From a virus (taxonomy: Duplodnaviria; Heunggongvirae; Uroviricota; Caudoviricetes), in the IMG/VR virus record IMGVR_UViG_3300045988_014597, positions 1-34,082 of that record: 34,082 nucleotides of DNA, one strand, 5' to 3'. Positions 11,034-33,999 of this stretch are shown here, one piece after another (the first letter of the stretch is position 1; each line of letters starts with the position of its first letter). The notes under the pieces are model-generated. The model ran no database searches. It saw only the letters and a program-made list of their open reading frames with translations, and had not been told where the DNA came from. The translations under genes and the position numbers were made by a program.

Positions 11034-11709
11034 GATTAGCCTCGTAAACTGCTTTTGCGAAACCCCGCGGAGTAAGGCTGCGGATTGTTTTTGTCCGCAC
11101 TGATTTACCGCCTAATTTATTGTGTTGGTCTGAGTACCCATCACCAACGGCAACACATGATTTAACGGGCATAACAAAACCGTTACCAGCCCAAATACAT
11201 GTCTTCTTAGGGTACGCGTCCCGAGGTTTTATGTATTCAGGGAACATTGGATGCGTGTCGTCTTCCGGTAAATACCCGCCGTATTCGTACGGATTGAATA
11301 CATAATCAGGCTTACGCCATAAAGACGAAAGAACGCTAACCGGGTTCTCAATCATATAAGGTACGTTGTACTTTTTAGCAAGACGCGCCGCCACTTTGCA
11401 TGTAATCACGGCCTCTACCTGAAACGTTGGATTCTTCTTCCGTTTCGTTTCGAAATGCGCAGCACCACTAACGGCTAAATCTGTGCACGGAGGGAACGCG
11501 AAAATAATATCCGGCGCAACGTCGAAGTCGAATTTATTATCAATCCACGCGTTTATATAGTGGATGTTCTCGTGTTCAACTTTCGAACCCAATCGCGCGT
11601 AGTCGCCGTGGTCGGCACCGTCGTAGTTGAAACAATAGCAAGTATGGCCCGCTTCTGCCCACGGTTGGGCCATGAGGCCCGAACCGTCGAACAATGACCA
11701 GATAATCAT
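11026..11709 (-). CDS. Compact DNA (cytosine-5) methyltransferase-like protein, 227 aa
   Basis: C5-methyltransferase signature order: motif I LFDGSG, PC motif FAFPPCTDLAVSG, ENV-like motif MIENP, C-terminal RSLTPRGFAKAV resembling motif IX. Very short, so the target-recognition domain must be minimal. Confidence 0.6.
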   Translation of the reverse strand: MIIWSLFDGSGLMAQPWAEAGHTCYCFNYDGADHGDYARLGSKVEHENIHYINAWIDNKFDFDVAPDIIFAFPPCTDLAVSGAAHFETKRKKNPTFQVEAVITCKVAARLAKKYNVPYMIENPVSVLSSLWRKPDYVFNPYEYGGYLPEDDTHPMFPEYIKPRDAYPKKTCIWAGNGFVMPVKSCVAVGDGYSDQHNKLGGKSVRTKTIRSLTPRGFAKAVYEANHV

Positions 11710-11897
11710 TTCAACACCAGAACTAACTCTTTACGTCCAAACGCCGTAACGTTACCGGTTACATCTTCGATAACCAGTTTACCGTTCGACTCGACGTATA
11801 CCGTATCAACGGCAACAGGACGACGTGTCTTAACGTTGAAAATCATGTCACCCGGTACGATGTCACGTGCTGGTTTGCGGTCGTATTCGTGTTTCAT
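11706..11897 (-). CDS. Hypothetical protein, 63 aa
   Basis: ORF directly downstream of a family A promoter, AAGGA-type RBS; stop overlaps the next start. Confidence 0.5.
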   Translation of the reverse strand: MKHEYDRKPARDIVPGDMIFNVKTRRPVAVDTVYVESNGKLVIEDVTGNVTAFGRKELVLVLK

Positions 11898-11908
11898 TTC
11901 TCAATTCC

Positions 11909-12214
11909 TTATATTGTTGGTGTATGACTACTATAATAGTTCGCTATTAGGTCGTCAACCTGTTTAAACGACCCGACGACAAAAACATTTGCGCCACGTT
12001 TGCGCATACGCTCATGTTCCCTCAGCTGGTGAGGGTCTGGCTTCGTATTTTCGTCTTTCTTAACCTCGACGAACCAGACGATGCCTCCGGGGAGAATTAC
12101 CAGGAGGTCAGGGGCCCCCACTCTATTTTCGTACGACAATTTGCGTACGAGGCCACCGAGGGCCTCAAATCGCTCTTTTGCGTATTTCTGGATGCGCCCC
12201 TCAGGCGTACTCAT
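11909..12214 (-). CDS. VRR-NUC domain nuclease (PD-(D/E)xK), about 101 aa
   Basis: GAPDLLVILPGG...FVEVKK pattern. ATG at 12214 preferred over the upstream alternative start used by the ORF track. Confidence 0.65.
   Translation of the reverse strand: MSTPEGRIQKYAKERFEALGGLVRKLSYENRVGAPDLLVILPGGIVWFVEVKKDENTKPDPHQLREHERMRKRGANVFVVGSFKQVDDLIANYYSSHTPTI
11929..11957 (-). promoter_or_regulatory. Family A sigma70-like promoter (TTGACG-N17-TATAGT) with embedded palindrome AATAG-N4-CTATT
   Basis: Reverse strand reads TTGACGACCTAATAGCGAACTATTATAGT; -35 at 11952-11957, -10 at 11929-11934, palindrome at 11934-11947. Confidence 0.6.
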
Positions 12215-12300
12215 AATACGCACCCCTCACGTTTCGTATGTTCAATACCGCAGCGCGGACAGATTCGACAGTCTTCTTCGTAGAACCAGTAAATTTTCAT
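12211..12300 (-). CDS. Small zinc-ribbon-like protein, 29 aa
   Basis: MKIYWFYEEDCRICPRCGIEHTKREGCVL, with a CxxCxxC cluster; ATGA overlaps at both ends. Confidence 0.3.
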   Translation of the reverse strand: MKIYWFYEEDCRICPRCGIEHTKREGCVL

Positions 12301-12428
12301 TCCAGCACCCACAGATAAATTGCGATGAACATGCCCAATATGGCAACCATCATGCCGTATTGACCCTCGTGACAGTAGATACCGGCGGCGAATCCCGCCA
12401 GTACCGCGATAATCAGTTTACTTGGCAT
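12297..12428 (-). CDS. Small membrane protein, 43 aa, two predicted hydrophobic helices
   Basis: MPSKLIIAVLAGFAAGIYCHEGQYGMMVAILGMFIAIYLWVLE; start overlaps the 3' end of the polymerase gene. Confidence 0.3.
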   Translation of the reverse strand: MPSKLIIAVLAGFAAGIYCHEGQYGMMVAILGMFIAIYLWVLE

Positions 12429-14589
12429 AACGTTTTAACTCCTGACCTTCCGCTACAAGAGGGAAGCCTTCTGCCCACTCAGGTAATTCACACATCAACC
12501 GCTCAAGTTCAGCCACATTGTATTCCGGCGTATCTGGTGTCTCACAGATAATTTCGTCGTGTACGTGAAGCACAATCGGATAGCCGTTAGCTTCTACATT
12601 CAGCAGCGCATTAGCCAGCAAATCACGGCATAGCGCCTGAGTGCAGTTTTCCACCAGTTTACCAGAGTAGGTGTACTGGAAGCCCCACTGACGGGTTAAC
12701 TGGTTCTCCCCCTGGTACTTGATACGCACGTTAGTAGACACCTTTCCGTCTTCGTCTGTCTCTTTCGACACGCTTAACCCGACTCCGGGGTATGACATAA
12801 CACGACCTGACGGCAACGTCATGCGCAACCACCAGCCAGCGACTTTGTTGCCGTTGATGTCTGTCTCCACGTTGCGCGAAAACTTAACGCCGCGCGGCCC
12901 TGCGGTGAACTCTTTACCTGGATTGCGGATAGCTGCCATAGCCGCATCTTCAATATCTCGCCAGAATTGGACTATTGCAGGATTAGCTTCCCGGTACATG
13001 CGTTTTAAAGCGTCACAGGTACGCCACACTTTCTTATCCAGAATATACGACGGTCGGTCATCCTTTTCGCCGGGTCTCGGCGGTCTCTTGGCTTCCTGAA
13101 TGCGTGCCCACTCATATCCGCGTGCGGTAGCGGCCCAGATGTGGTCAGGGAATGACCTGTCTAAAGTGCGGGTCATATCATTCAAATCAAGACCTAAGTT
13201 TTTAGCAAACGTGACGAAAGCACCTACACCCCCCGCGTAGCCGAGGCCCAGAACCATTGCTTTGGCTATTTGTCTTTGGTCCTTTGTTACAGCCTCGTAC
13301 GCAACGTTGAACACAGTTGATGCGAGTTTCTTATACACATCAACCCCGTTTACAAATACTTCTATTAAATCGTCTTCACCAGCCAGCCACGCTAAACCAC
13401 GGCCTTCGACGTTCGAGTAGTCGGCGACGACAAACTTATGCCCCACTTCCGGTATGATGCAGCTTCGCACCGTCGATGCCGTTAGCTTGGCTACATCGAA
13501 ACGGCGATGTGCACGGCCTTTAAGTAACGCTGAAATGCCTTTATCCAGTTCATCATCATGATAGTACCCGCGCGACTGGTTATGCGGCTGGAAGCCTTTA
13601 CCCGCAAACCGTAATGTACGCTTGGCCCCGCCATACTGGATGCAACCGCGGCGTCGGTCGTCAGAAGAACGGCCCAACAACAGTGGTCTATATTTCGTTG
13701 ACGCGGTAGACGCGGCCCCGAGGCGCATTTCGATAATCGTGCGAGCGTCGTCCGGTAAATCATCATCCGCCAGCAGGTCGTTAAGCGTAGACTTCTGCGC
13801 ATTGTGGATGCGGTGCGCTGGCGCAAGTTCACGCAGAATCGGAAGGAAGTCTTTACCAGTCAGCGAGCCGCCGTATTTGCGTTGGGCTTCTTCCTGTAAC
13901 TGTGCCTTGTGCTTCTCCACGGCTTCAATCGCGGCTTCCGCCAGTGCGACGTCAACCTTAAACCCCCTGTCATTGATTAACTGATCCAGTTCCAGTACAC
14001 GGTCCTCGAACTCGGAGTTACCCCACCGCGGCAGCTTATGGAACACTTCACGCATCGCAGTGATGTCACTCACGGCGTACTTGATGAACAGCGCCCATTC
14101 TTCCGGGTGTGTGTCCGCGGTGTAGCGGCGGATTTTGTAGTTCTTCGGTGTCGGTTTAGAGAAACGCTGAATCAGCGCCTTGCCGCGTTTATCTTTTGCG
14201 TTGTCCGCGGATACGCCAAGCACTTCACACAGCGCATCGAGTGACCCCGGCAGCGCGTGACGAAACGCCCAAATCATCGTATCAATGGTGTTGCTTACCG
14301 GAATATCAAAGCCCCAGCAGCGCTTCATGATTAGCCTGTCGAACATTGAGCCGTTATGCCACACCATCTTAATGCGGCTGTTCGGCTTCACCAGGCGGCG
14401 TAGAGCGCGGTGCAAATCTCCTGGCATGTCGCTGCTGTCGGTGCAATCCCATACCCGCACAGGTTCGTCGTCGAAAGCATATGTACAGATAAGCACTTCG
14501 GTAGTCGGGTGTTCGGCATAAGCGTAGGAGCCGACTTTCTTTAAATCGGCCTCGGAGAATGTTTCAAAGTCTAAGAACAGGTAACTCAT
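12418..14589 (-). CDS. DNA polymerase, family A (Pol I-like) with 3'-5' exonuclease domain, 723 aa
   Basis: Exo motifs FLDFETFS and YAVSDI; polymerase motif A VVADYSNVEGR, motif B RQIAKAMVLGLGYAGG, motif C VLHVHDEI. Confidence 0.93.
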   Translation of the reverse strand: MSYLFLDFETFSEADLKKVGSYAYAEHPTTEVLICTYAFDDEPVRVWDCTDSSDMPGDLHRALRRLVKPNSRIKMVWHNGSMFDRLIMKRCWGFDIPVSNTIDTMIWAFRHALPGSLDALCEVLGVSADNAKDKRGKALIQRFSKPTPKNYKIRRYTADTHPEEWALFIKYAVSDITAMREVFHKLPRWGNSEFEDRVLELDQLINDRGFKVDVALAEAAIEAVEKHKAQLQEEAQRKYGGSLTGKDFLPILRELAPAHRIHNAQKSTLNDLLADDDLPDDARTIIEMRLGAASTASTKYRPLLLGRSSDDRRRGCIQYGGAKRTLRFAGKGFQPHNQSRGYYHDDELDKGISALLKGRAHRRFDVAKLTASTVRSCIIPEVGHKFVVADYSNVEGRGLAWLAGEDDLIEVFVNGVDVYKKLASTVFNVAYEAVTKDQRQIAKAMVLGLGYAGGVGAFVTFAKNLGLDLNDMTRTLDRSFPDHIWAATARGYEWARIQEAKRPPRPGEKDDRPSYILDKKVWRTCDALKRMYREANPAIVQFWRDIEDAAMAAIRNPGKEFTAGPRGVKFSRNVETDINGNKVAGWWLRMTLPSGRVMSYPGVGLSVSKETDEDGKVSTNVRIKYQGENQLTRQWGFQYTYSGKLVENCTQALCRDLLANALLNVEANGYPIVLHVHDEIICETPDTPEYNVAELERLMCELPEWAEGFPLVAEGQELKRYAK

Positions 14590-14605
14590 TATTTTCGACC
14601 CCTAG

Positions 14606-14630
14606 TAAAAAGGCCCAATGAAGGGCCTTA
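14606..14630 (-). terminator. Intrinsic terminator between the SSB-like gene and the polymerase gene
   Basis: AGGCCC-AATGAA-GGGCCT hairpin with an A-run on the + strand, giving a U-tract on the reverse-strand transcript. Confidence 0.5.
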
Positions 14631-14648
14631 GTTAAATTGATTCAGATA

Positions 14649-15275
14649 TTAACGGCGACGACGTTCGCGGCGCGGTGCTTCATCTTCTTCGTCGTCTTCC
14701 AGGTCATCGACGCTTGCAGCGACTTTAGAACCGCCGAATGCTTTACCTTCGCCAACATATTTAATCGCCAGCAGGTTAACGCCGAGGACTTTGTATTTCT
14801 GGCTGAACCAGATTTCGACGCTTACGTTAGCGACGCAGCCGCTGTAAACCTGTTCACCTTCAATCTGTTCACCGTCCACATTGAAGTCCTGCTCTACCTG
14901 AGTCTCGCCTTTTTTAGAGGTTACAATCAGCGGCTGTTTCTGTGCCTTCGCTTTGAAGTAGAAGCCTTCCGGGAAGTCTTCAAACGGATTGTCGCGCTCG
15001 GCAATGTCTTTAATCGCGCATTTATCCATATGCTTGCCTTCGCCGTAGTTGGACTTCATCCATTTCTCGGCAGCGGCTGCACCTAACGCCTCTTCAACTA
15101 CAGCATAAACCGTGTCGTAGAGTGCGTCGATTTGAGCATGGTCAGGCGGCAGGATAATAGTCGCGCTGTATTGACCTTTAGTGATTGAGCCATCGTCGTT
15201 TTCACGGTCTTTTTCGCGTTCAAATACGTTAACCCAAGCAGTGTTTACTTTACGCAGATTTAATTTCAGTCCCAC
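14649..15275 (-). CDS. Putative ssDNA-binding protein (SSB-like, DUF2815-like) with a charged C-terminal tail, 208 aa
   Basis: Acidic C-terminus (DDLEDDEEDEA) followed by an Arg run; neighbours a DUF2800-type nuclease and Pol A, a common phage replication trio. Function inferred. Confidence 0.45.
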   Translation of the reverse strand: MGLKLNLRKVNTAWVNVFEREKDRENDDGSITKGQYSATIILPPDHAQIDALYDTVYAVVEEALGAAAAEKWMKSNYGEGKHMDKCAIKDIAERDNPFEDFPEGFYFKAKAQKQPLIVTSKKGETQVEQDFNVDGEQIEGEQVYSGCVANVSVEIWFSQKYKVLGVNLLAIKYVGEGKAFGGSKVAASVDDLEDDEEDEAPRRERRRR

Positions 15276-15338
15276 AGTTCAGCCCTCATTAAGTTTAGAT
15301 TTTAAGTTTACTCCGGGAACTGCCCGGCCAGTGATTTA

Positions 15339-15368
15339 ACTATAATAGCTTACTATTCAGGTTGTCAA
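15339..15368 (-). promoter_or_regulatory. Family A sigma70-like promoter (TTGACA-N18-TATAGT) with embedded palindrome GAATAG-N4-CTATT
   Basis: Reverse strand reads TTGACAACCTGAATAGTAAGCTATTATAGT; palindrome at 15344-15357. A CCGGG-N5-CCCGG hairpin at 15313-15327 lies in the 5' leader. Confidence 0.6.
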
Positions 15369-15372
15369 CACT

Positions 15373-16629
15373 TTATTCCAAATCTTCTTCACTAACCTGA
15401 TTCCACTCAGGCCGTTTGTCGTCCGCCGTTGCGACGCACGGCGCACCGGGCTTACGGGTAATGAAGTCTTTAAGTTCTTCTTCCGGTATGACTTTAACCG
15501 CTTCGGTTGGCGTCATGAGGACTTCTTTAGTCAGCTTGTTGCCGTAGAGTTCTGCCACTTTCTCCGCGTCTTTCCACGCACGATTACCGGGACGACCTTC
15601 AACGAGTTTGTACCCTGGCACTTTCTTGCCGGAGTGCAACGCGGTGGCCATAGCTTTTTCAACCTTGTCTATGTGCTGGCGCAACAACGGCAACTTCTCA
15701 TACTCGGCTACGAGTTGCTCTGGTGTCAGTTCCAGCTCAAAGTCGTCCTCCAGTTCTTCCGCCAGTACAGAATTAACCGTCTTTGTACGCGCGGCGCACT
15801 GTTCCGAGAACCGACACCACTGACAACCATCGACCGACGGCTTGAAGTCCGACGCTTTCAGGTTCTTCTTACCCCGAAAATACGCATCAAGAGCTAACAG
15901 CGCGCGTTTCTGTGCAAACTTAGCGAACAGTTCCAGACCTTCAACCGAAATGTCCCACTCCGACGCACCGCCAGCATACGGCTGAAAGATGACCAGACGA
16001 ACAACCGTGATGTTATAACGTCTCTTGAGTCGGCGATAAACACCGAGAGCGTAAAGCATAAGCTGCTTGTTTTCTTTCGCTTCGACACGGTGTCGCCCAG
16101 TTTTCAGGTCGCCGATAATTAGCATGTGCTCGTCGGTGTTAGCCAGTTCCTGAACGGCAACAAGGTCAGCGGTTCCGAACGTCTCAACGCCTTCATATCC
16201 CGGATGCAATACCTCGGTAAGATTGACGCGCATTTCCAGCTTGGCGTAAGTCGCTACGTCGATAATCGCTTTGCAGTAGTCGGTGTACTTGCGCACCTGC
16301 TCAATCATGCCCGTCGTAATCAGTACCGCACCTTTCATCGGGCTGATTAGGGCCTTAATCTGGCCTTTACCCTCATCCAGCACGTAAGCACCGACTTCAC
16401 GCTCTAACGGCAACGCGGTGCCTTTGATGTACTGGTTTAAATGGACCTCGGCAATAGTGTGGCATGCGGTTCCTGTAACGGCAGATTTACCAGACGCGTT
16501 AGGAATATCTTTTTCACACGCCAGTGACGCAGCGCATGACAGCCACTTTTTAGCGCCTGACGGTGACAGTAAGGCGTGTACATCGTTATTTCCGCCGCGA
16601 TCCTTTAAAATCATACCCTGCTCTCCCAC
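15373..16629 (-). CDS. PD-(D/E)xK nuclease of the Cas4/RecB-like family (DUF2800-like), 418 aa
   Basis: GDLKTG and QLMLYALG motifs, plus a four-cysteine arrangement (one N-terminal Cys and a C-terminal CQWCRFSEQC cluster) typical of Fe-S Cas4/AddB-type nucleases. Confidence 0.7.
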   Translation of the reverse strand: MGEQGMILKDRGGNNDVHALLSPSGAKKWLSCAASLACEKDIPNASGKSAVTGTACHTIAEVHLNQYIKGTALPLEREVGAYVLDEGKGQIKALISPMKGAVLITTGMIEQVRKYTDYCKAIIDVATYAKLEMRVNLTEVLHPGYEGVETFGTADLVAVQELANTDEHMLIIGDLKTGRHRVEAKENKQLMLYALGVYRRLKRRYNITVVRLVIFQPYAGGASEWDISVEGLELFAKFAQKRALLALDAYFRGKKNLKASDFKPSVDGCQWCRFSEQCAARTKTVNSVLAEELEDDFELELTPEQLVAEYEKLPLLRQHIDKVEKAMATALHSGKKVPGYKLVEGRPGNRAWKDAEKVAELYGNKLTKEVLMTPTEAVKVIPEEELKDFITRKPGAPCVATADDKRPEWNQVSEEDLE

Positions 16630-16883
16630 TGGTCAATTAAATGTCGTGTCTTATGGTCGCAATGCATAGCCCACCCATACATCGACTCGAAGACATAAAA
16701 GTCAGGTTTTGCGAAAGTCGTGCGCTTAATCTGCGACACGTGACGGCCTATATCTTTAGGTCGTGGTACTTTGCCTAAGTAAGCCATCTCTTCCATCAGG
16801 TGCGCACCGGACGGCGCACGCAACAGCCATAGCGCCTCTGTGTTATCTCGCCTGTCTACGGCGCGGTAGAGTTGGTAAATCAT
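16611..16883 (-). CDS. Hypothetical protein, 90 aa
   Basis: ORF in the operon, overlapping the downstream gene start. Confidence 0.45.
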   Translation of the reverse strand: MIYQLYRAVDRRDNTEALWLLRAPSGAHLMEEMAYLGKVPRPKDIGRHVSQIKRTTFAKPDFYVFESMYGWAMHCDHKTRHLIDQWESRV

Positions 16884-16925
16884 TCGGCGTCCCTCAGTTA
16901 AAGCGGCCAGAAGGCCGCCGGATAA

Positions 16926-17396
16926 CTATTCTTCTTCGAAATACTTGTTCTTGATTGCTGTCAGGCGTTCCAGATATTCAGCCAGGTCTTCGTCTTTAAT
17001 CGCGGCAATCTTCATCTTCTTACCGGTGAACTCTTCCAGCAGTTCATCGGAATCATCGCACGCGGCATCGCTTGGACCTTCGTTAATTGCATCGTCGATA
17101 GCCTGAATCTGGTCACGAAGAGACTGGTAATCGACTTCTTCTTTCTCTTCTTCCGGCTCTGGCGCAGGTTCCTCTACTTTAGCTTTACGCGGCTTGCGTT
17201 TCGGCTTCTCATCTTCCGCCGGTTTAGTATCGACGATGTCTTCACCTTCGACCGGGATTTCTTTTGTTGCTTCTTTCGCAACGGTGGTCTCGATTGTTGC
17301 GGTTTCAGCAACGACAACCTGTTTTGCACTGTTCTCGGCAATCAGTTCATGGGCAACTACGAAACGTTCCAGTAATACTAAGAATTTCTCTAACAT
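16926..17396 (-). CDS. Acidic hypothetical protein, 156 aa
   Basis: Strongly acidic central and C-terminal regions (EPAPEPEEEKEE, DDSDELLEEF). Confidence 0.55.
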   Translation of the reverse strand: MLEKFLVLLERFVVAHELIAENSAKQVVVAETATIETTVAKEATKEIPVEGEDIVDTKPAEDEKPKRKPRKAKVEEPAPEPEEEKEEVDYQSLRDQIQAIDDAINEGPSDAACDDSDELLEEFTGKKMKIAAIKDEDLAEYLERLTAIKNKYFEEE

Positions 17397-17406
17397 TTGG
17401 TTCTCT

Positions 17407-17562
17407 CCTGTTTATTTATACTTAACGGTTTTAACTAACTGGCCTGTCGCTTTGTCGAAGAAGCCAACACGATTGTTGCTTACGCGATAGCGTGCGGTTT
17501 CTTTAGTTCCAAATGCTATATCAAGGCCCAACAGAATCTTTGCTTTGCGGTTATTGGTCATT
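17407..17562 (-). CDS. Small hypothetical protein, 51 aa
   Basis: Reverse-strand ORF with a GGAGAG RBS, directly downstream of a family A promoter. Too short for the ORF track. Confidence 0.4.
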
Positions 17563-17593: not shown

Positions 17594-17623
17594 ACTATAA
17601 TAGCAAACTATTCATGTTGTCAA
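17594..17623 (-). promoter_or_regulatory. Family A sigma70-like promoter (TTGACA-N18-TATAGT) with embedded palindrome (T)GAATAG-N4-CTATT
   Basis: Reverse strand reads TTGACAACATGAATAGTTTGCTATTATAGT; palindrome at 17599-17612. Divergent from the HTH gene promoter. Confidence 0.6.
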
Positions 17624-17627
17624 TGGG

Positions 17628-17657
17628 CTTTTCTAAAATAATTAATATGGTACTATT
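17628..17657 (+). promoter_or_regulatory. Putative promoter of the XRE gene, with a degenerate palindrome AATAT-N4-CTATT over the -10 (TACTAT)
   Basis: TACTATTCAC at 17651-17660 matches the family B -10 and leader; the -35 is weak (CTTTTC). Confidence 0.35.
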
Positions 17658-17687
17658 CACATATCGGCTAACTAAGGAGTAATTGAC

Positions 17688-17903
17688 ATGCAACCATCTG
17701 AACTAGGCATCCGTGTAGAACAACGCCGCAAAGAACTCGGCATCTCCCAGCGCCGTCTGGCCGTCCTGGCTGGCGTTTCCCAGGGCGCAATTAACCAGCT
17801 GGCACTTGGGGTAACTCAGGACGTCCGCCCGGCGACGCTGTTCAAACTGGCGGAAGTGCTGCAAGTAGACGCCAAGTGGCTGGCGTTAGGTGAAGGGGCT
17901 TAA
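17688..17903 (+). CDS. XRE-family helix-turn-helix transcriptional regulator (Cro/CI-like), 71 aa
   Basis: LGISQRRLAVLAGVSQGAINQLALG helix-turn-helix; AAGGAG RBS; sole + strand gene inside the reverse-strand replication module. Confidence 0.85.
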   Translation: MQPSELGIRVEQRRKELGISQRRLAVLAGVSQGAINQLALGVTQDVRPATLFKLAEVLQVDAKWLALGEGA

Positions 17904-17918
17904 TGCCCCTTTCTTTTT
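17894..17918 (+). terminator. Intrinsic terminator after the XRE gene
   Basis: AGGGGC-TTAAT-GCCCCT hairpin followed by a T-run; the stop codon lies in the loop. Confidence 0.65.
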
Positions 17919-17920
17919 AT

Positions 17921-20188
17921 CTATTCTAAATCCTCCTCTGTCACCACCAGCATTTCATTCGGTTCGTATATTGTCTTCGGTATTTTGTTGTCCGTTATCC
18001 GGGTGTTCAGCCTGTAACGGCCCGGTATTATCTGATTGTTTTCGTCTGTTCCAGGTACAAGATACCCGGCCTCAACCATTTTCTTAATCTTCCCGCGTTC
18101 TATGGCTTCTTTGGAGTTAAACGCCTTCGCGTTGGGGTCAGACTGTGCCAGCTTATTCGCTGCGGCCACCGTGATACCTTCGTTGCCGTTGTAGGTTCCT
18201 TCGGCCAGTTCAAACGCTGCCAGTATCGTGGCCTCCGAACTGTTGACAGCGTTCTCTACGGTTTTGCGTACGTTTTCTTTACCTTCCTTTGTCAGCCCTT
18301 CTTCGCGCTCTTTCTCCTCGTCAGTTTTGAACGGTTCGAAGCCCCACGGCATTAACACAAGTGCCTTATGTGGTTCTGGCAGGTCCAGGTTTACGATTGC
18401 GCCGTATTCCTCTGTGTTACCCAGGAACTCAACCGCGCGATACTCTTTCGGCGGCGGTGCTTCGCGGAACTGTACCGACTCCAGAACCATGCCAACCGTC
18501 TTCTGCTGAGGCCCGTGCTTAAATTTCGAGTGGTATACGTTTATCTGTCGGTCGGTGGCGCGTTCGATTGTTAGTTCGACGTCAACACCAGCATACAACG
18601 CCCCACTGCCACGGGCTTTCTTTCCGCCTTTCGGTGTGTGGTGAACAACGCCTACCGCGGCTTTAGTCGCATCGCGTACTTCTTTCAGGATGGCGATAAC
18701 TTTACCCATGCCGATTGCCGTCGATGAACTGTTCTCGTCGAACTTATCAATCGTCAGGGCCAACGTCTGGTTAAGGGTGTCGAACGCAACCATGCCGATT
18801 GGTTCATCGCCAGCGGTTTCGCGCATTAGCTTAATCAGGCTTTTAAGTTTGCCGACCTCACCCATGTCGATGACATGTACGTAATCTTTACCTTCCTCGC
18901 CGTATTTAGCCGCGAGCGCGTCAATACGTGTACGCGTAGCGGCACCGCCCTCGCCGTCGATATAGAAATGGTGGCAACGCTGGGTGTCCGCCCCCGCAAA
19001 CCGGTATCCGGCGGCGCTAAGGTACATCATCCCCAGCGTATAGAATGATTTGTACGTGCCGGATTCCCCGACGATATCCCAGATACAATCCGACGGCATG
19101 TACCCTTCGACGACGAAATCAGCCTTTACCGGTTCCGGTAATTCGTCCCCCTCTGAGTCCTCGTCGTCTTCCAGGTCGTCCAGGCTGCATGAGACGGATT
19201 CACGCGCGCCCCAACCGATGGCCTCCGCGACTTCACTGAACGGCAGCCCGGTCGCATCGCACGCATATTTCCACACCTCTTTCGGCGACATGCCTTCGGT
19301 AGCCGTAATGTCGGTGTCGTGAATCATGGTCACGTTCGGCGCTTCGTATCCTTCACGCGGGAAGCACAGCAGGAAGTCGTCCGGGCGCGGGGTCGGGTCG
19401 CTGTAGTTCTCTGCGTGTTCCGGTGTAGCTGGCATCTTAAGGCCGCGTGGCGTCATGATACCGCCGTACTCAAACGCCAGTGCCTCGAACGCATCAGTAA
19501 ACGCGGTGCGCAGTTCTTCCGGTATCTGGTAATCAGATGCGCTGCTCACCTCGTAATCCGGGATGCCTTCCAGTAATTCGTCCGGGTCAATCAGGTCATT
19601 GCGACGCGACCAGATAACGGTAGAGCCGACCGGCGGCAGGTACATCGGCTGTGACAGAGTGAACCCGCTGCGGTCCGCGCCCATGCCTTTGAAGAAGTGC
19701 TCCAGCAATCCGTGGCGGGCGCGGATGATGTCACCGCCTTCGACAGGGCGGCCCAGCGGCATGACGACGCGAAAGCGCGGGGACTCGTCGGTATGTGATG
19801 CCGTGGTATAGAGGCACATCGCACGGCGGCTACGCTTAACCAGGCGCACCGCTTCCTGGTACTCTTCCGGCGTTGCGCTGTCAAAGTCCAGATACGCCAG
19901 CGATGATTTACTTACAGACGCATCACAGCGGTAAAAGAAGCCTTTACGCGCTTGCTTAAAGTCTCCAGTTTCCGGGTCTTTTACGGTGCTGTGCGTAGAG
20001 TCGCACGCGGCGGTGATATAGCCGGGTGCGGTCTTAGGGTTAATCCCGTCGCGAACGGCATCGAGCGGCTGAATTAACTCTTTCAGGCCGTCCAGGGTTG
20101 CCGTATGGGTGGTTCTGACGTTTATATCCTTTTTCTCTGCCCGCGCGTTGCGGCGGGACCACGAGTAGGATAAAATTACATCGGACAT
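17921..20188 (-). CDS. Bifunctional DNA primase/helicase (AEP primase-polymerase N-domain plus RecA-like helicase), 755 aa
   Basis: AEP-like LAYLDFDSA (DxD) and CLYTTASH motifs N-terminally; Walker A GESGTYKSF and Walker B-like MVAFDTLNQ centrally. Confidence 0.8.
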   Translation of the reverse strand: MSDVILSYSWSRRNARAEKKDINVRTTHTATLDGLKELIQPLDAVRDGINPKTAPGYITAACDSTHSTVKDPETGDFKQARKGFFYRCDASVSKSSLAYLDFDSATPEEYQEAVRLVKRSRRAMCLYTTASHTDESPRFRVVMPLGRPVEGGDIIRARHGLLEHFFKGMGADRSGFTLSQPMYLPPVGSTVIWSRRNDLIDPDELLEGIPDYEVSSASDYQIPEELRTAFTDAFEALAFEYGGIMTPRGLKMPATPEHAENYSDPTPRPDDFLLCFPREGYEAPNVTMIHDTDITATEGMSPKEVWKYACDATGLPFSEVAEAIGWGARESVSCSLDDLEDDEDSEGDELPEPVKADFVVEGYMPSDCIWDIVGESGTYKSFYTLGMMYLSAAGYRFAGADTQRCHHFYIDGEGGAATRTRIDALAAKYGEEGKDYVHVIDMGEVGKLKSLIKLMRETAGDEPIGMVAFDTLNQTLALTIDKFDENSSSTAIGMGKVIAILKEVRDATKAAVGVVHHTPKGGKKARGSGALYAGVDVELTIERATDRQINVYHSKFKHGPQQKTVGMVLESVQFREAPPPKEYRAVEFLGNTEEYGAIVNLDLPEPHKALVLMPWGFEPFKTDEEKEREEGLTKEGKENVRKTVENAVNSSEATILAAFELAEGTYNGNEGITVAAANKLAQSDPNAKAFNSKEAIERGKIKKMVEAGYLVPGTDENNQIIPGRYRLNTRITDNKIPKTIYEPNEMLVVTEEDLE

Positions 20189-20245
20189 ATTATAATTCCT
20201 TCAGCAAGTAATTTGGCCTCGGCGCCCTAACGTCGGGGCTTTCTT

Positions 20246-20695
20246 TTATTCAGCGTTTGGTACTGCAAGAGCATACACGCCATCCAGCACCTTAATCAAC
20301 AAACCTTTTTTACAAAGCCCGCGCATGGCGGTACAGACATCACCAAGATTAGTGACATCATCTTTTACCATGGCGTATACCGCACTAGGCGTAAAACGTT
20401 GTCCTTGCTGTTCAAGACATTTTCCATAGACTAATTTTTGTAACTCCGTAAGTTGGCCCTTCTCGGGAAAAGGAACGGATATAACATTGGATGGTTTCCC
20501 ACCTTTAACCCAATACAGGTACTTACTCCCATCATAAACACGGTCTATCTCCCCGAAATACCCAAGCAATGAAATCGCGGCGCTAATTGGCCCGTCGAGT
20601 TCTATTGCAGATTTAATGTCATGCAGTGACGCTCCCGGGTTCTCGGCTAATATCATATTTAACGATTTAAGAAACTCGTCTAAGTATTTATGCAT
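20246..20695 (-). CDS. Hypothetical protein, 149 aa, possibly winged-helix DNA-binding
   Basis: Second gene of the reverse-strand operon; C-terminal region resembles a winged helix. Weak assignment. Confidence 0.55.
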   Translation of the reverse strand: MHKYLDEFLKSLNMILAENPGASLHDIKSAIELDGPISAAISLLGYFGEIDRVYDGSKYLYWVKGGKPSNVISVPFPEKGQLTELQKLVYGKCLEQQGQRFTPSAVYAMVKDDVTNLGDVCTAMRGLCKKGLLIKVLDGVYALAVPNAE

Positions 20696-20831
20696 TCTTC
20701 TTAGCCTCTCTTAATTGTTTGCGATATGCATTGAAACATTCACGGCAATAACTGCGTGTGCCTTTTCTGTCATATCGTTTGAGGAATGCACCTTCTTCTT
20801 TTTCTTTCCTACACATCTGGCAAATCTTCAT
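20688..20831 (-). CDS. Small zinc-ribbon protein, 47 aa
   Basis: MKICQMCRKEKEEGAFLKRYDRKGTRSYCRECFNAYRKQLREAKKNA with two CxxC pairs; strong GAGGAG RBS; stop overlaps the downstream ATG. Confidence 0.45.
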   Translation of the reverse strand: MKICQMCRKEKEEGAFLKRYDRKGTRSYCRECFNAYRKQLREAKKNA

Positions 20832-20849: not shown

Positions 20850-20878
20850 TTGAAGTACCCAATATAATGGTACTTCAA
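20850..20878. promoter_or_regulatory. Perfect 10 bp inverted repeat flanking a TATAAT-containing core (candidate operator and bidirectional promoter core)
   Basis: TTGAAGTACC-CAATATAAT-GGTACTTCAA. Confidence 0.5.
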
Positions 20879-20889: not shown

Positions 20890-20926
20890 CAACAAAGTTA
20901 CTAAGATACAAAAGATGCTACTGATA

Positions 20927-20955
20927 TTGACTTTTCACTGAAAATATGCTAAGCT
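20927..20955 (+). promoter_or_regulatory. Strong sigma70-like promoter with extended -10 (TTGACT-N17-TGC-TAAGCT), copy 1
   Basis: TTGACT at 20927-20932, TG at 20947-20948, TAAGCT at 20950-20955. Confidence 0.6.
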
Positions 20956-21037
20956 CCACCTGAGCTTGTGAAGTATGAACAAGCGACCGCGGTGCGGCAG
21001 GAGAACGGAGCGGTGCGTTAGCACTGAGTGTAGTGTC
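20927..21037 (+). repeat. Dispersed direct repeat R1 (promoter plus conserved leader), about 110 bp
   Basis: Aligns with 33971-34082. The first ~66 nt differ at 2 positions; the remainder has two single-base indels and more substitutions. Confidence 0.85.
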
Positions 21038-21155
21038 GCTGCCCGCATTCGGAAGGCCCATAGTCTATTGTTAATCCAGCCTAAATACCCAAGTCACTGA
21101 TAATTAAAAGTTTCTATAGTTGCCGTGAGCAATGTAGAGAGTACTTCACTCCGCT

Positions 21156-21177
21156 GGGGTGGGCTAACGCCCACCCC
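21156..21177 (+). other. GC-rich hairpin GGGGTGGGC-TAAC-GCCCACCCC
   Basis: Perfect 9 bp stem with a 4 nt loop. No immediate U-tract, so either a weak terminator or an RNA structural element downstream of R1. Confidence 0.4.
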
Positions 21178-21235
21178 CTGCGTTGCGTACTCTTTTAAGA
21201 AACGAAAGAATCACAACGGCAACGTAACTATTCTC

Positions 21236-21264
21236 TTGCACACCCCAACATAATAGGATACTAT
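21236..21264 (+). promoter_or_regulatory. Family B sigma70-like promoter (TTGCAC-N17-TACTAT) with embedded palindrome AATAG-N4-CTATT
   Basis: Palindrome at 21252-21265; the promoter, leader and start share about 63 of 66 positions with the reverse-strand copy near 33841-33904. Confidence 0.6.
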
Positions 21265-21298
21265 TCACTTATCGAAACGAGACATAAGGAATTTAGAA

Positions 21299-21517
21299 AT
21301 GAACAAAGCGACCGCAAGCGTAGTTTCCGCAATCAAAGAAGTTTACGGCATCGATATTTCAGAGCGCGTAATCATCGGTAATAAGCGCAACTTCTTTACG
21401 TTCGACACCGACGGAATGGATGAAAATGATTTTATCAACGTACAACGTTTCGCTAATGATAGAGGGCTTCGTAACGAGCCTGCAGGTTACAAGAAATTCG
21501 CTATCTACTTTAAATAA
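21299..21517 (+). CDS. Hypothetical protein, 72 aa
   Basis: First ORF after the family B promoter; AAGGA RBS. Confidence 0.6.
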   Translation: MNKATASVVSAIKEVYGIDISERVIIGNKRNFFTFDTDGMDENDFINVQRFANDRGLRNEPAGYKKFAIYFK

Positions 21518-21535
21518 GACAGAGGAGTGATGGTT

Positions 21536-21724
21536 ATGTTTAAGAAGGGTCAGTTGGTCAAAGCTGTAAATAGCAATTATTTCATTGTTGAAAGCGAGTC
21601 TGCAGTTTTTCCGAGGGCTTATAGAGTAAGTTTTATACGGGAAAGATTAGGAGCGGTAACTTGGTTCCGTGAAGATGAGCTAACACTCATCGGCAACAAT
21701 TTTAAATTCAAAGGGGCGAAGTGA
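21536..21724 (+). CDS. Hypothetical protein, about 62 aa
   Basis: GAGGAG RBS at 21522-21527; ATG at 21536 preferred over the GTG at 21527. Confidence 0.5.
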   Translation: MFKKGQLVKAVNSNYFIVESESAVFPRAYRVSFIRERLGAVTWFREDELTLIGNNFKFKGAK

Positions 21725-21978
21725 TGGAAGAATTAATTTGTATTGAATCTGGTCCAGATGTGCGGCATTGGTTTGTAAAAGGTAACAAGTATTCGTCAGG
21801 GGTATATTACGACGGCCGTCGATACGTTTTAGATGAAGACGGTGATGAATGGGACTTAGAGCAATCACATGGTGAAGCCTTTACCGTGAATTTCCTGGGC
21901 ACACCCGCCATAACATTCACAACGGCATCGAATCATGATGCTCGTGCCGATGACTCTGAGGGAGGTTGCCGTGGATAA
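21724..21978 (+). CDS. Hypothetical protein, about 84 aa
   Basis: ATG overlaps the upstream TGA. Confidence 0.5.
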   Translation: MEELICIESGPDVRHWFVKGNKYSSGVYYDGRRYVLDEDGDEWDLEQSHGEAFTVNFLGTPAITFTTASNHDARADDSEGGCRG

Positions 21979-22000
21979 TATTTTAATGGTGGAGGTTGAT

Positions 22001-22195
22001 ATGAGCCCGTATAACAAATTTCGCTTACGCCGTCTTGTTGGTGGTCTGCGCGCCGCCGAGTTTGGTGTTGAATGTTGGGAAAAGGCGAAATATACCCCAT
22101 GGAAGTCGTGGCATTTGGTTCATGCTAAGGCGGTAGCACAGTACCGTGAGTACAAGTTAAACAGTTTCCTTAAGCACCACGGGGTTGAGTTATGA
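22001..22195 (+). CDS. Hypothetical protein, 64 aa
   Basis: GGAGG RBS five nt upstream of ATG 22001. Confidence 0.45.
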   Translation: MSPYNKFRLRRLVGGLRAAEFGVECWEKAKYTPWKSWHLVHAKAVAQYREYKLNSFLKHHGVEL

Positions 22196-22353
22196 GAGAA
22201 GCATTTGAACGGTGGGCCGTCGTAGAGGGTCTGCCGGTTAACAAGGGTTCGAAGAAAGAGTACCTGACCGTTAAGACACGTCTTGCGTGGCGGGCGTGGA
22301 AAGCTGGTGTGCAATTTCGTGCTGGTGTAACAGGTGGTGTAACAGGTCAATAG
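22192..22353 (+). CDS. Small hypothetical protein, 53 aa
   Basis: ATGA overlap with the upstream stop; too short for the ORF track. Confidence 0.35.
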   Translation: MREAFERWAVVEGLPVNKGSKKEYLTVKTRLAWRAWKAGVQFRAGVTGGVTGQ

Positions 22354-22501
22354 GTTACTATTTGTCTTTGTGTCTTACGCTGCTACACAGCAGCGTACAA
22401 CTTTAACTTAGTGTCGTCAAAAGGCGACACTTTTCACCAAACGCAACAATCGAAGCGACTATTGCAGGAGATGCAACAATACAAACACCAATAAAATTTA
22501 C

Positions 22502-22530
22502 TTGCACACTGGGATAGAATAGACTACTAT
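22502..22530 (+). promoter_or_regulatory. Family B sigma70-like promoter (TTGCAC-N17-TACTAT) with embedded palindrome GAATAG-N4-CTATTC
   Basis: Palindrome at 22517-22532 overlaps the -10. Confidence 0.6.
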
Positions 22531-22561
22531 TCATTTACACGAACGAGAGGATAGACAGAAG

Positions 22562-22711
22562 ATGGTTACTTTGATGATTATGGAATTCGAAAACAGCGCT
22601 GCAACTTACCGCGAGATGACTATGGCGCAGGCGTACCATCTGGCATCAAACGGCAGCTTCTACAAGGCTCAAATCATCAATGAGTTCGGGGTAATTGACT
22701 ATGAATTTTAG
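22562..22711 (+). CDS. Small hypothetical protein, 49 aa
   Basis: First ATG after the promoter and leader; overlaps the next gene start. Confidence 0.4.
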   Translation: MVTLMIMEFENSAATYREMTMAQAYHLASNGSFYKAQIINEFGVIDYEF

Positions 22712-22973
22712 AAGATACACCGTTACCGTTGATTTTGAGGGGCTGGATTTGCCCCTCCCCAACAACTACCGGTATATAACCCGTGACCGTTTCGGGTTTA
22801 TTCAGGGGTGGCGTAACAAGCCGACAGACACTGAGTTCGGGATGTCGGGTGGTGAAGAGTTGCCGATCACGTTCGGGCACCAAAGTAGTAACGAAGAGCT
22901 TAAAACTGTGATTCGTAAGTATCGTCGCCGGGGTAAAACTGAACTTATCGCAATAACAGGCGCTGTTGAATAA
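22701..22973 (+). CDS. Hypothetical protein, 90 aa
   Basis: ATG at 22701 preferred over the TTG at 22695. Confidence 0.5.
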   Translation: MNFRRYTVTVDFEGLDLPLPNNYRYITRDRFGFIQGWRNKPTDTEFGMSGGEELPITFGHQSSNEELKTVIRKYRRRGKTELIAITGAVE

Positions 22974-22992
22974 ACGAGAGGAGAGACGGAAG

Positions 22993-23421
22993 ATGAGTAA
23001 CAAAAACGAAGTATTCGAGTACCTGATTGACCAGCTACGGCAGCAGGTAAATAAGAAAGATGTGACATCTTTCAATGTATCTGTGCAGATATCCGACCTT
23101 GATGAGGTCAAGCAGGTAGTCCACAACCTACAGCAGCATATCGCAGGTAAGGATGACGAAATACGTGCGCTGAAAGACAGTTTACGGCAGCAGGTAAATA
23201 ACAACCAGTGCGAAGACCTGGCGCATGAGGTGCAGTCACTTAAGAATCAGTTACGTGATGCGTCGGCGCTGGTGGCTGAGTTGCAGAAAGAACTTGATGT
23301 CGCGAATAGCACCGTAGCTCGTTTGAGTAAAGAGGGGGTACAGAGGTGCAACCATGTTTGGTACAGGTACAACTTAGGCGGCTACACTAAGATGTGCCTT
23401 AAATGCGGGCTAAAGAAATGA
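22993..23421 (+). CDS. Coiled-coil protein with C-terminal zinc ribbon, 142 aa
   Basis: Strong GAGAGGAGAG RBS; internal repeat LRQQVNK / LRQQVNN; C-terminal CNHVW...CLKCG. Confidence 0.55.
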   Translation: MSNKNEVFEYLIDQLRQQVNKKDVTSFNVSVQISDLDEVKQVVHNLQQHIAGKDDEIRALKDSLRQQVNNNQCEDLAHEVQSLKNQLRDASALVAELQKELDVANSTVARLSKEGVQRCNHVWYRYNLGGYTKMCLKCGLKK

Positions 23422-23621
23422 CCAGCATCTTATTTATCTGGGTACTGGCCGCGGGCCATATGCACCTAGCGGCAACAGAAACGTTTTACTCGATGGAGGC
23501 GTGCCAGTCAGCGGCACGCGCCGCGGAGAACGCGCACTTTCTGTTTCAGGGTGACAAGCCCAACGATTCAGAGGTACGCGCTATCTGCTCACCTAAGCGA
23601 CTTAGCAAACAGGAGAAGTGA
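23418..23621 (+). CDS. Small protein with hydrophobic N-terminus (possible signal peptide or membrane anchor), 67 aa
   Basis: MTSILFIWVLAAGHMHLAA; ATGA overlap with the upstream stop. An alternative ATG exists at 23403. Confidence 0.45.
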   Translation: MTSILFIWVLAAGHMHLAATETFYSMEACQSAARAAENAHFLFQGDKPNDSEVRAICSPKRLSKQEK

Positions 23622-23623
23622 TT

Positions 23624-23875
23624 ATGGTTGTACGATATGACTTAACAGAAGATTTTGCGGGTACAGTAGATATAACGCCTGTCCCGGACTCGCATGAAGG
23701 ACGTTATGTAAGCTACGAAGATTACGCGAAACTCGAAGCCGAACTTCTGGAAATAAAAGCTGCAGCCCGTTGTCTTGTGCGAGAAGCGAGTAAGGTGTAT
23801 AGCGATTATAGTGACGTTATAGCGCCTGAGTTTGTAGACCAGCAAACCATATACGAACTGGGCATTCTGCTATGA
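23624..23875 (+). CDS. Hypothetical protein, about 83 aa
   Basis: AGGAGAAG RBS upstream of ATG 23624. Confidence 0.5.
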   Translation: MVVRYDLTEDFAGTVDITPVPDSHEGRYVSYEDYAKLEAELLEIKAAARCLVREASKVYSDYSDVIAPEFVDQQTIYELGILL

Positions 23876-24165
23876 GCCTCGCAACGGACATCCTGGAACG
23901 AAGCGGCCTTGCGCCGCTGGCACCGAGAGCTAAAACACGGATACACAAGCGTCGCCGTAACGCGCTGTACCCTGAGATTCAGGCCAGACGCAAAGCGGTA
24001 CGCGCCTGTGGATTCCAGAACGGGAAGGCTGTGAACCTCGGTGAGTTTAAAACGCAGGAGCGCGCTGCAATCGCTAATCGGTTATTTAATTACTGGAAAT
24101 CGCTGGGATACGATGATATCCCGACGAAACCACAGAGGCGACAATACATCTGGCGTCATAAATAA
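23872..24165 (+). CDS. Hypothetical basic protein, 97 aa
   Basis: ATGA overlap with the upstream stop; Arg/Lys-rich. Confidence 0.5.
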   Translation: MSLATDILERSGLAPLAPRAKTRIHKRRRNALYPEIQARRKAVRACGFQNGKAVNLGEFKTQERAAIANRLFNYWKSLGYDDIPTKPQRRQYIWRHK

Positions 24166-24195
24166 ACCGTTATTAGGATAATTCCTACCCGTGGT

Positions 24196-24235
24196 ATCCT
24201 CCAGTTACTGCATACTTAATACGCACCTGGAGGAT
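24196..24235 (+). promoter_or_regulatory. Inverted repeat that could sequester the holin ribosome-binding site
   Basis: ATCCTCCAG (24196-24204) and CTGGAGGAT (24227-24235) can pair; the right arm contains the GGAGGA Shine-Dalgarno six nt before the TTG start at 24241. Confidence 0.4.
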
Positions 24236-24240
24236 TCATC

Positions 24241-24549
24241 TTGGATAAATTTACTGAAACAGTGACGGGGTGGCTTCTCGCTGCCGCACTAGCCGGAGGG
24301 GTAATCGGGCTACGACAACATAAGTCCGTTATTTCAGGCCCAATAGACGGCTTCTGCTTTATTGCAACAGGCTTCACCTGCGCCGTATTTGGTGCACCTC
24401 TTGCGGCCCAATGGTTTGGCATCACGGGCGACCGTGAAATCGCAGGCCTGGGCTTCATTATCGCTATTCTCTGGATGCCTATCTATTCCCGCCTTTCTGG
24501 CATCGTCGCCGGAGAATACATTGCACGTCGAGGAGGCCCGGATGAATGA
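24241..24549 (+). CDS. Holin-like membrane protein, 102 aa, TTG start
   Basis: Several hydrophobic segments; immediately upstream of a second membrane protein and the endolysin. Confidence 0.5.
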   Translation: MDKFTETVTGWLLAAALAGGVIGLRQHKSVISGPIDGFCFIATGFTCAVFGAPLAAQWFGITGDREIAGLGFIIAILWMPIYSRLSGIVAGEYIARRGGPDE

Positions 24550-24814
24550 GCTATTCTGGTTCGGTGGTATGCTGGCCATCGGAGGCACATCGCTGTTTAA
24601 TGTGTACCACCCCCGCGTTGACGACGGGCTATTCGGTCGGGTGCTCTATATCCTGACCGCTATTGTCTGCGCCGCCGGATGTATCCACCTGTTACAGGGC
24701 AGCATGTCACCTACGCTGCCCGAGACATTAATCACATTAGTTGCGCTGCGCCAGATTCGTCAGGCGTGGCTGTCATACGGAGGGCATAAGCGTGTCTCGA
24801 AACATTTCAGATAA
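24542..24814 (+). CDS. Second lysis-cassette membrane protein (holin or antiholin-like), 90 aa
   Basis: GGAGG RBS; two hydrophobic helices; overlaps both neighbours. Confidence 0.45.
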   Translation: MNELFWFGGMLAIGGTSLFNVYHPRVDDGLFGRVLYILTAIVCAAGCIHLLQGSMSPTLPETLITLVALRQIRQAWLSYGGHKRVSKHFR

Positions 24815-25394: not shown

Positions 25395-25415
25395 TCTATT
25401 TTCTGCAATGACTAG

Positions 25416-25444
25416 TTGACTATTACCATCGACCCTATTATATT
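25416..25444 (+). promoter_or_regulatory. Sigma70-like promoter (TTGACT-N17-TATATT)
   Basis: Leader ATCGACAACGAGAAC resembles the family B leaders; a degenerate palindrome ACTAG-N4-CTATT overlaps the -35. Confidence 0.5.
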
Positions 25445-31447: not shown

Positions 31448-31475
31448 TTTAACACCTCCTGTTTAAGTTAGCAGA

Positions 31476-31504
31476 ATAGTACCCTATTATATTGGTGTCT
31501 GCAA
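31476..31504 (-). promoter_or_regulatory. Family B-type promoter (TTGCAG-N17-TACTAT) with embedded palindrome GAATAG-N4-CTATT, driving the methyltransferase
   Basis: Reverse strand reads TTGCAGACACCAATATAATAGGGTACTAT; palindrome at 31474-31488. Confidence 0.6.
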
Positions 31505-33841: not shown

Positions 33842-33875
33842 TTCTAAATTCCTTATCTCTCGTTTCGATAAGTGA

Positions 33876-33904
33876 ATAGTACCCTATTATGTTGGTGTGT
33901 GCAA
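33876..33904 (-). promoter_or_regulatory. Family B promoter (TTGCAC-N17-TACTAT) with embedded palindrome GAATAG-N4-CTATT
   Basis: Reverse strand reads TTGCACACACCAACATAATAGGGTACTAT; palindrome at 33874-33888. Confidence 0.6.
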
Positions 33905-33970
33905 ACTATTTATTTACCTATTCCAATTATCCCACTAAATTGTAAATGTTGGAATAAACTATTCGAATAG

Positions 33971-33999
33971 TTGACTTTTCACTAAAAATGTGCTAAGCT
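33971..33999 (+). promoter_or_regulatory. Strong sigma70-like promoter with extended -10 (TTGACT-N17-TGC-TAAGCT), copy 2
   Basis: Same architecture as 20927-20955; preceded by the perfect palindrome CTATTCGAATAG at 33959-33970. Confidence 0.6.

Follow-up and report, generated by a model that had tools for sequence, protein, structure and literature searches.

A two-fold symmetric element at the promoters of a Kagunavirus genome as a candidate operator of a 434-Cro-like protein

The operators of phage 434 (OR and OL, ACAA-N6-TTGT) are 14 bp long, conserved in their outer bases and variable at the centre, and they overlap the -10 and -35 elements of early promoters, where their role is to lower early transcription in lytic growth. 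A different arrangement is found in phage P1, in which one small regulator, C1, acts on many scattered single operators that each overlap an early or replicative promoter. Here we describe a 14-bp two-fold symmetric element, AATAG-N4-CTATT (AATAGNNNNCTATT; two half-sites of 5 bp separated by 4 bp), in the IMG/VR virus record IMGVR_UViG_3300045988_014597, analysed over 34,082 nucleotides (the window). The window belongs to a Kagunavirus (Guernseyvirinae, Sarkviridae), a virulent siphophage of E. coli. The dyad is probably the operator of a phage-encoded dimeric repressor, for which the most probable candidate is a 71-aa, 434-Cro-like protein of the XRE family.

The XRE protein has the length of 434 Cro (71 aa), consists like it of a single HTH_3 domain, and has 434 Cro as its best match among solved structures (PDB 1zug, E = 1.8e-6, query residues 6-68 against chain residues 4-64, 63 residues). 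The 434 operators, which likewise overlap promoter hexamers, have the half-site ACAA where the window has AATAG. Unlike 434, the window phage has no CI partner, no tripartite OR/OL and no lysogeny, and its operators would be single and dispersed over seven to nine promoters of a virulent genome. The recognition helix also reads differently, QGAINQ in XRE against the aligned QQSIQL of 434 Cro and QQSIEQ of 434 repressor, so that most contacts differ. P1 C1, in turn, differs in its asymmetric 17-bp sites bound by a monomer, in being unrelated in sequence, and in its role in the maintenance of lysogeny. In related phages the protein is labelled DicA, after the regulator of the Qin prophage, whose N-terminal HTH_3 domain is about 42% identical to XRE. 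DicA, however, has 135 aa with a C-terminal domain and the helix SHVSVSQW, and its operator region, TTGTTAGT-N4-ACTAACAA, bears no relation to AATAG-N4-CTATT; the label is a domain-level resemblance only.

Within the subfamily, seven "phage promoters" with the consensus tgAATAGTa-ccTATTat-T have been annotated in phage fBC-Eco01 and ascribed to a phage RNA polymerase (PMC9825357), and seven PHIRE promoters are listed for the Kagunavirus Golestan (PMC7203180). Both annotations concern the same repeated element, and the published consensus corresponds to one of the two promoter families described below (family B) on the opposite strand; dyad symmetry, sigma-70 hexamers and XRE are mentioned in neither paper. 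A literature search found the motif only as this PHIRE promoter repeat and nowhere read as an operator, and found no experimental work on the XRE protein. The motif is already known as a repeat.

Few E. coli and Salmonella phages have been isolated for therapy and biocontrol more often than these, yet the gene regulation of Guernseyvirinae is essentially unstudied. The 15-23 kb region of the window matches about 450 phage records, with Escherichia phage vB_EcoS_fPoEco01 at the top (about 90% identity), and the Kagunavirus and Jerseyvirus matches to the window are virulent siphophages with genomes of about 43 kb.

The dyad and its conservation

Eight exact copies of the dyad occur in the window (Table 1). 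The expectation from shuffled sequences is 0.01, and none of 100 shuffles reached eight, so the recurrent promoter palindrome reported in a preliminary description of this DNA is confirmed as enriched. Allowing one mismatch raises the number of matches to 11, where 0.75 would be expected; the three additional copies, at 17644 (the XRE promoter), 25411 and 33966, all fall in promoter regions. No other palindrome of 5-mers with a gap of 0-10 bp is present more than twice in the window. The pentamers AATAG and CTATT are concentrated outside genes as well, with 28 intergenic occurrences in the window against 5.8 expected. When IMG/VR was scanned for AATAGNNNNCTATTATAGT, the contigs with multiple matches were all Guernseyvirinae, and the lone matches look like chance.

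A similar frequency of the palindrome in coding sequence had been named in advance as evidence that would count against an operator, and it is not seen: six of the eight exact dyads are wholly intergenic in a window with an intergenic share of about 8.7%. The other two are the dyad at 11935, within the final codons of a resolvase-like gene, and that at 22349, which overlaps a stop codon. Seven of the eight overlap the spacer or the -10 element of sigma-70-type promoters that form two unrelated families; promoters and transcription starts are here predicted from sequence and not mapped. The overlap with the -10 region in both families had been noticed before and holds at these seven sites, and the degenerate copy at the XRE promoter (17644-17657) does carry a single mismatch. 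The earlier list of sites was right as far as it went, with the exact copy at 22349-22362 overlooked and with small shifts in coordinates (11934-47 becomes 11935-48, 22517-32 becomes 22518-31, and 31474 and 33874 become 31475 and 33875).

Family A comprises the minus-strand promoters at 11935, 15344 and 17599, with the form TTGAC(A/G)-17/18-TATAGT, and these are the three best sigma-70 matches between 9 and 28 kb (10-11 of 12). Their dyad fills the spacer from -25 to -12, and the -10 hexamer begins with its final T. Family B (21252 and 22518 on the plus strand, 31475 and 33875 on the minus strand) has the form TTGCA(C/G)-17-TACTAT, with the dyad at -19 to -6 and the -10 hexamer inside the right half-site. 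The two families have nothing in common except the dyad. Nearly all early and DNA-metabolism promoters of this phage have the dyad on their core.

Table 1. Copies of the dyad, their predicted promoters, and the gene blocks of the window
Feature	Positions	Strand	Details
Exact palindrome AATAGTTCGCTATT, family A spacer	11935..11948	promoter minus	-35 TTGACG 11958-11953, -10 TATAGT 11935-11930; to 63-aa gene, methylase-like gene, SNF2 helicase
Exact palindrome, family A	15344..15357	promoter minus	-35 TTGACA 15368-15363, -10 TATAGT 15344-15339; to single-stranded-DNA-binding protein and DNA polymerase genes
Exact palindrome, family A	17599..17612	promoter minus	-35 TTGACA 17623-17618, -10 TATAGT 17599-17594; to small genes and DUF2800 nuclease; back-to-back with XRE promoter
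Imperfect copy AATATGGTACTATT, one mismatch, XRE gene's own promoter	17644..17657	+	extended -10 (TGgTACTAT), TG 17648-17649 and TACTAT 17651-17656; -35 poor
Exact palindrome, family B	21252..21265	+	-35 TTGCAC 21236-21241, -10 TACTAT 21259-21264; heads first rightward early operon
Exact palindrome, -10-like TACTAT, no -35	22349..22362		overlaps stop codon of open reading frame 22192-22353
Exact palindrome, family B	22518..22531	+	-35 TTGCAC 22502-22507, -10 TACTAT 22525-22530
One-mismatch copy ACTAGTTGACTATT	25411..25424	+	overlaps -35 of TTGACT (25416-25421)-17-TATATT (25439-25444), 3' of lysis genes
Exact palindrome, family B	31475..31488	-	-35 TTGCAG 31504-31499, -10 TACTAT 31481-31476; to DNA methyltransferase gene 30695-31447, antisense within rightward structural operon
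Exact palindrome, family B	33875..33888	-	-35 TTGCAC 33904-33899, -10 TACTAT 33881-33876; to three small leftward genes (33841-33066) among structural genes
One-mismatch copy AATAGTTGACTTTT	33966..33979	+	overlaps -35 of TTGACT (33971-33976)-17-TAAGCT (33994-33999)
Tail genes	1-9255	+	
Leftward replication block	9421-17561		SNF2 helicase, methylase-like protein, resolvase-like nuclease, family A DNA polymerase, Enc34-type single-stranded-DNA-binding protein, DUF2800 nuclease
XRE gene, 71-aa XRE/HTH_3 protein, 434-Cro-like, candidate repressor	17688..17903	+	monocistronic
Terminator hairpin of XRE gene	17892-17912		
Helicase-primase operon	17921-20831		leftward
Rightward block	21299-30679		small early genes, lysis genes, terminase, portal
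DNA methyltransferase gene	30695-31447		short leftward cassette within structural region
Three small genes	33066-33841		second short leftward cassette within structural region

Conservation was followed in 58 IMG/VR loci around XRE homologues together with the complete genomes of K1G, Ent3, FSL SP-031, VSiA and Shemara, and orthologous promoters were aligned through BLAST matches of their flanks, so that the sites were not chosen by motif. In each Kagunavirus and Jerseyvirus locus no palindrome ranks above the dyad. Over 19-39 Kagunavirus orthologues, the half-site columns have 0-1.4% minor alleles, against 8-17% in the central N4 and 1-6% in the flanks. At site 17599 both half-sites are exact in all 39 Kagunavirus loci while the N4 takes six forms (CGAA, TGAA, CTAA, CAAA, CTAG and CGAG). 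The left half-site of family A lies in the spacer and is invariant, and spacer bases make no base-specific contact with RNA polymerase. Between the window and its relative, the IMG/VR locus L031, 26% of the third codon positions of the helicase-primase gene are different, and about five half-site changes would be expected were the sites unconstrained; all shared half-sites are intact and the N4 differs. These comparisons place both half-sites under selective constraint separate from polymerase contacts.

The imperfect copies are maintained as such. The XRE promoter keeps its imperfect left half, AATAT, in 39 of 39 Kagunavirus loci, 27 of which share one identical 38-mer, and the imperfection of copy 25411 is likewise kept across Kagunavirus, with AATAGTTGACTAGT as its Jerseyvirus counterpart. 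The promoter-less site 22349 is under weaker constraint, being degenerate in 4 of 11 orthologous loci.

Between genera both the position and the sequence of the dyad vary. Its register relative to the -10 element differs by 3 and 6 bp among promoters, one Jerseyvirus promoter having it in a third register (-22 to -9). The Jerseyvirus operator is TAATAG-N4-CTATTA, with the outer T and A fixed in both promoter families. In three Cornellvirus genomes AATAG-N4-CTATT was not found at all; three orthologous promoters in these genomes carry TATTA-N6-TAATA, in which both halves have changed symmetrically and the dyad is displaced by 3 bp relative to the -10. The Serratia phage Scapp, tried as an outgroup, has the same XRE-replication module and no repeated palindrome.

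The invariant half-sites with a drifting N4, the variable registers and the symmetric change in Cornellvirus are the grounds on which we read the dyad as an occlusion-type operator, and they support well the view that it is a site for a dimeric protein that would occlude RNA polymerase. The same invariance, drift and symmetric change give good support to the argument of the preliminary description that a two-fold site implies a dimeric DNA-binding protein. A variable register fits occlusion and not activation.

Some further features lie at individual sites. The resolvase/endonuclease-like gene at 11909-12223 on the minus strand (phrog_93, 8e-34) holds an entire family A promoter with its dyad in its last 17 or so codons, and coding sequence and operator would be co-constrained there because the promoter lies inside the gene. 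Directly 5' of the promoter-less dyad at 22349 stands a direct repeat, GGTGTAACAGGT GGTGTAACAGGT, at 22320-22348, and GGTGTAACAGGTC-AATAG is kept in all 11 loci that have this site. An everted CTATTcgAATAG (33959-33970) lies just 5' of the copy at 33966, and the divergent region at 33900-33980, between the promoter at 33875 and the TTGACT promoter, contains a cluster of additional half-sites.

The XRE protein and a proposed course of repression

The XRE protein matches Pfam HTH_3 (PF01381) with E = 1.2e-12 and 48.1 bits (cut-off 23) over residues 11-65, and its PHROG annotation is transcriptional repressor. Its Q32, which does not vary among Guernseyvirinae XRE proteins, aligns with the glutamine of the Q28/Q29 region where the recognition helix starts. 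Because XRE is closest to 434 Cro, which binds 14-bp operators, its geometry would fit a 14-bp dyad. Every Kagunavirus, Jerseyvirus and Cornellvirus locus examined has the gene, in each case back-to-back with a promoter that carries a dyad, and in each of the three genera only a degenerate copy of the dyad stands at its own promoter, as expected for weaker autoregulation. The description of XRE as lying between divergent palindrome-bearing promoters thus stands for the 17599 promoter and needs qualification for its own, which has the imperfect copy only.

Searches of about 40 window open reading frames against Pfam and PHROGs showed no other clear DNA-binding regulator, in agreement with the preliminary description; besides XRE they gave hints of two proteins, one NinH-like and below threshold (26746-27006) and the other a 47-aa zinc-ribbon protein. 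XRE is the best available candidate for the binder of the dyad and is likely to be that protein. In RNA sequencing of K1B4, the one Kagunavirus for which a transcriptome exists, gene 004 ("specific DNA binding") falls in a class that peaks after the earliest genes, at a time resolution too coarse for a test of shut-off (PMC12645636). This gene is taken to be XRE because it adjoins the AAA-domain gene 005.

We infer the repressive effect and its timing to be as follows. On infection, host sigma-70 RNA polymerase would fire the strong early and DNA-metabolism promoters of families A and B, while XRE would be made from its own monocistronic unit by way of an extended -10 and a weak -35. As XRE accumulates, its dimer would bind the spacer or -10 of at least seven promoters, sterically block the polymerase and turn these promoters down. 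The conserved imperfect copy at the XRE promoter would give weaker and later autorepression. Late silencing of the antisense promoters at 31475 and 33875 in the structural operon would remove interference or collision with late transcription. Such an action would resemble that of Cro in the lytic growth of lambdoid phages, minus CI.

If XRE does act in this way, the shut-off of early and replication promoters, as well as the silencing of the leftward cassettes embedded in the late operon, would come down to one 71-aa Cro-like protein and one 14-bp operator, and the published label of "phage RNA polymerase promoter" would be corrected. XRE would be a probable essential timing gene to be considered in phage engineering, and the XRE-operator pair would offer synthetic biology a repressor/operator set that is compact and portable and comes in three natural variants of specificity.

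Weighing the alternatives

Several observations weigh against XRE as a repressor acting at a selected operator. The right half-site overlaps the -10 element, so part of its conservation is owed to the polymerase, and common descent accounts for some of the likeness among the family B promoters, which are paralogues along their entire length (about 60 bp with the 5' leader counted). The six-residue recognition stretches, in three variants, correspond to three operator variants, over three lineages only: QGAINQ with nAATAG-N4-CTATTn in Kagunavirus, QSLITH with TAATAG-N4-CTATTA in Jerseyvirus, and QSAISH with TATTAk-N4-sTAATA in Cornellvirus. The Kagunavirus and Jerseyvirus proteins are about 50% identical and differ at four of five variable recognition positions, and they share the AATAG core; the Jerseyvirus helix is closer to the Cornellvirus helix than to that of Kagunavirus. 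With three lineages, this covariation of helix and operator appears compatible with XRE but not discriminating. Many small early reading frames without annotation are, moreover, possible alternative binders.

The difference between the two helices is also an argument for another phage protein as the binder, with XRE regulating something else; this protein could be a small early one or, in relatives, an AlpA/excisionase-like helix-turn-helix (HTH) protein. Conservation of the latter (56-60 aa, encoded upstream of helicase-primase) is about 80% between the dyad-sharing genera Kagunavirus and Jerseyvirus; no Cornellvirus locus has it, and the AATAG dyad is absent there too. In K1B4 the AlpA-like gene is among four early genes in the RNA sequencing data (PMC12645636). 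The window and L031, however, are without this protein, a 149-aa protein and the 47-aa zinc-ribbon standing in its place, and their shared half-sites have stayed intact through the third-position divergence described above. As both lack the AlpA-like protein and keep the half-sites, that protein is not needed for the constraint, and the AlpA/MerR-like HTH (PE1_050 of fPoEco01, gp45 of Ent3) was rejected as the binder for this reason. No further DNA-binding domain was detected among the window reading frames with Pfam and PHROGs. Some other phage protein at these sites is thus unlikely, though it is the most serious of the alternatives.

The published annotations invite the view that the dyad acts positively, as a promoter element specific to the phage that is either recognised by a polymerase or bound by a factor by which host RNA polymerase would be recruited or reprogrammed. 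Seven such promoters were annotated in each of fBC-Eco01 (PMC9825357) and Golestan (PMC7203180), the family B -35 TTGCAC is non-canonical, and the right half-site coincides with the -10. Yet no RNA polymerase gene was found among the window reading frames scanned or annotated in the gene tables of relatives, and family A, at up to 11 of 12 positions, is near enough to the sigma-70 consensus for an activator not to be needed. Promoter recognition has no two-fold symmetry, registers that differ by 3 and 6 bp are incompatible with a fixed polymerase contact, and -25 to -6 is the position of a repressor and not of an activator. MerR-type activators need spacers of 19-20 bp, whereas those of the window have 17-18 bp. 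A positive element is accordingly improbable, and slightly more so in the specific form of a private promoter class marked for host RNA polymerase by a dimeric phage factor, possibly XRE acting positively; if this were true, a phage lacking a polymerase of its own would have a genuine, new type of promoter in the PHIRE "phage promoters". The binder could instead be a transcription factor of the host, E. coli or Salmonella, exploited for host sensing or acting in host defence, and the retention of the sites across phages of two related hosts would suit this view. Jerseyvirus and Cornellvirus, however, are both Salmonella phages with different dyads, the motif clusters in IMG/VR only in Guernseyvirinae genomes, and we know of no enterobacterial regulator with an AATAG-N4-CTATT site; a host factor seems very unlikely. 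Hardly more can be said for a dyad with no separate function, a by-product of promoter duplication and of -10-like sequence on both strands: the paralogy of family B and the overlap of CTATT with the -10 would suit it, but families A and B are unrelated in every other respect, the left half-site stays the same while spacer flanks and N4 drift, the imperfect XRE-promoter copy is itself conserved, and the symmetric change in Cornellvirus speaks against it. Two other ideas were rejected, cross-talk with DicA because the operators of the E. coli K-12 dicA-dicC region bear no relation to the dyad, and an explanation at the RNA level because a search of the window against Rfam gave no match and the dyads lie upstream of the predicted transcription starts.

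Neighbouring elements and module differences

The module difference that sets the window apart lies at 20246-20831 on the minus strand. Here the 149-aa protein and the 47-aa CxxC...CxxC zinc-ribbon replace the AlpA/excisionase-like HTH protein and its neighbour that most Kagunaviruses have, and this swap is common only to the window and L031 (90% amino acid identity). The 149-aa protein has no family match and looks like two winged-helix-like repeats. The adjoining promoter of the helicase-primase operon, on the minus strand, is TTGCTT-17-TATATT (-35 at 20889-20884, -10 at 20866-20861) and carries, in place of the AATAG dyad, a perfect inverted repeat, TTGAAGTACC-N9-GGTACTTCAA (20850-20878). 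The repeat is also present in L031, with one base different in its 9-nt loop, and this promoter reads differently in phages that have the AlpA-like HTH module. That the TTGAAGTACC repeat tracks the module suggests a module-specific regulator.

A second repeated element joins a promoter-like TTGACT-17-TAAGCT to a conserved stretch of about 150 nt (CCACCTGAGCTTGTGAAGTATGAACAAGCGACCGCGG...) and is found twice on the plus strand, at 20925-21120 and at 33970-34082, where it runs off the end of the window. The copy at 20925-21120 has no convincing open reading frame and extends to a hairpin at 21160-21181; Rfam finds nothing in it, and it folds no better than shuffled sequences (z = -0.35). The genome of K1G (L003, 4404-4600) has a single CCACCTGAGCTTGTGAAGTATGAACAAGCGACCGCGG copy, upstream of spanin and head genes, and the repeat may be a late-promoter leader.

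The DNA polymerase gene carries inteins in the Jerseyvirus Ent3 and the Kagunavirus fPoEco01, and the helicase gene of Ent3 has one too; the positions in Ent3 (L002) are 25318-27783 and 28377-31475. The DNA polymerase of the window (12418-14589, 723 aa) is intein-free.

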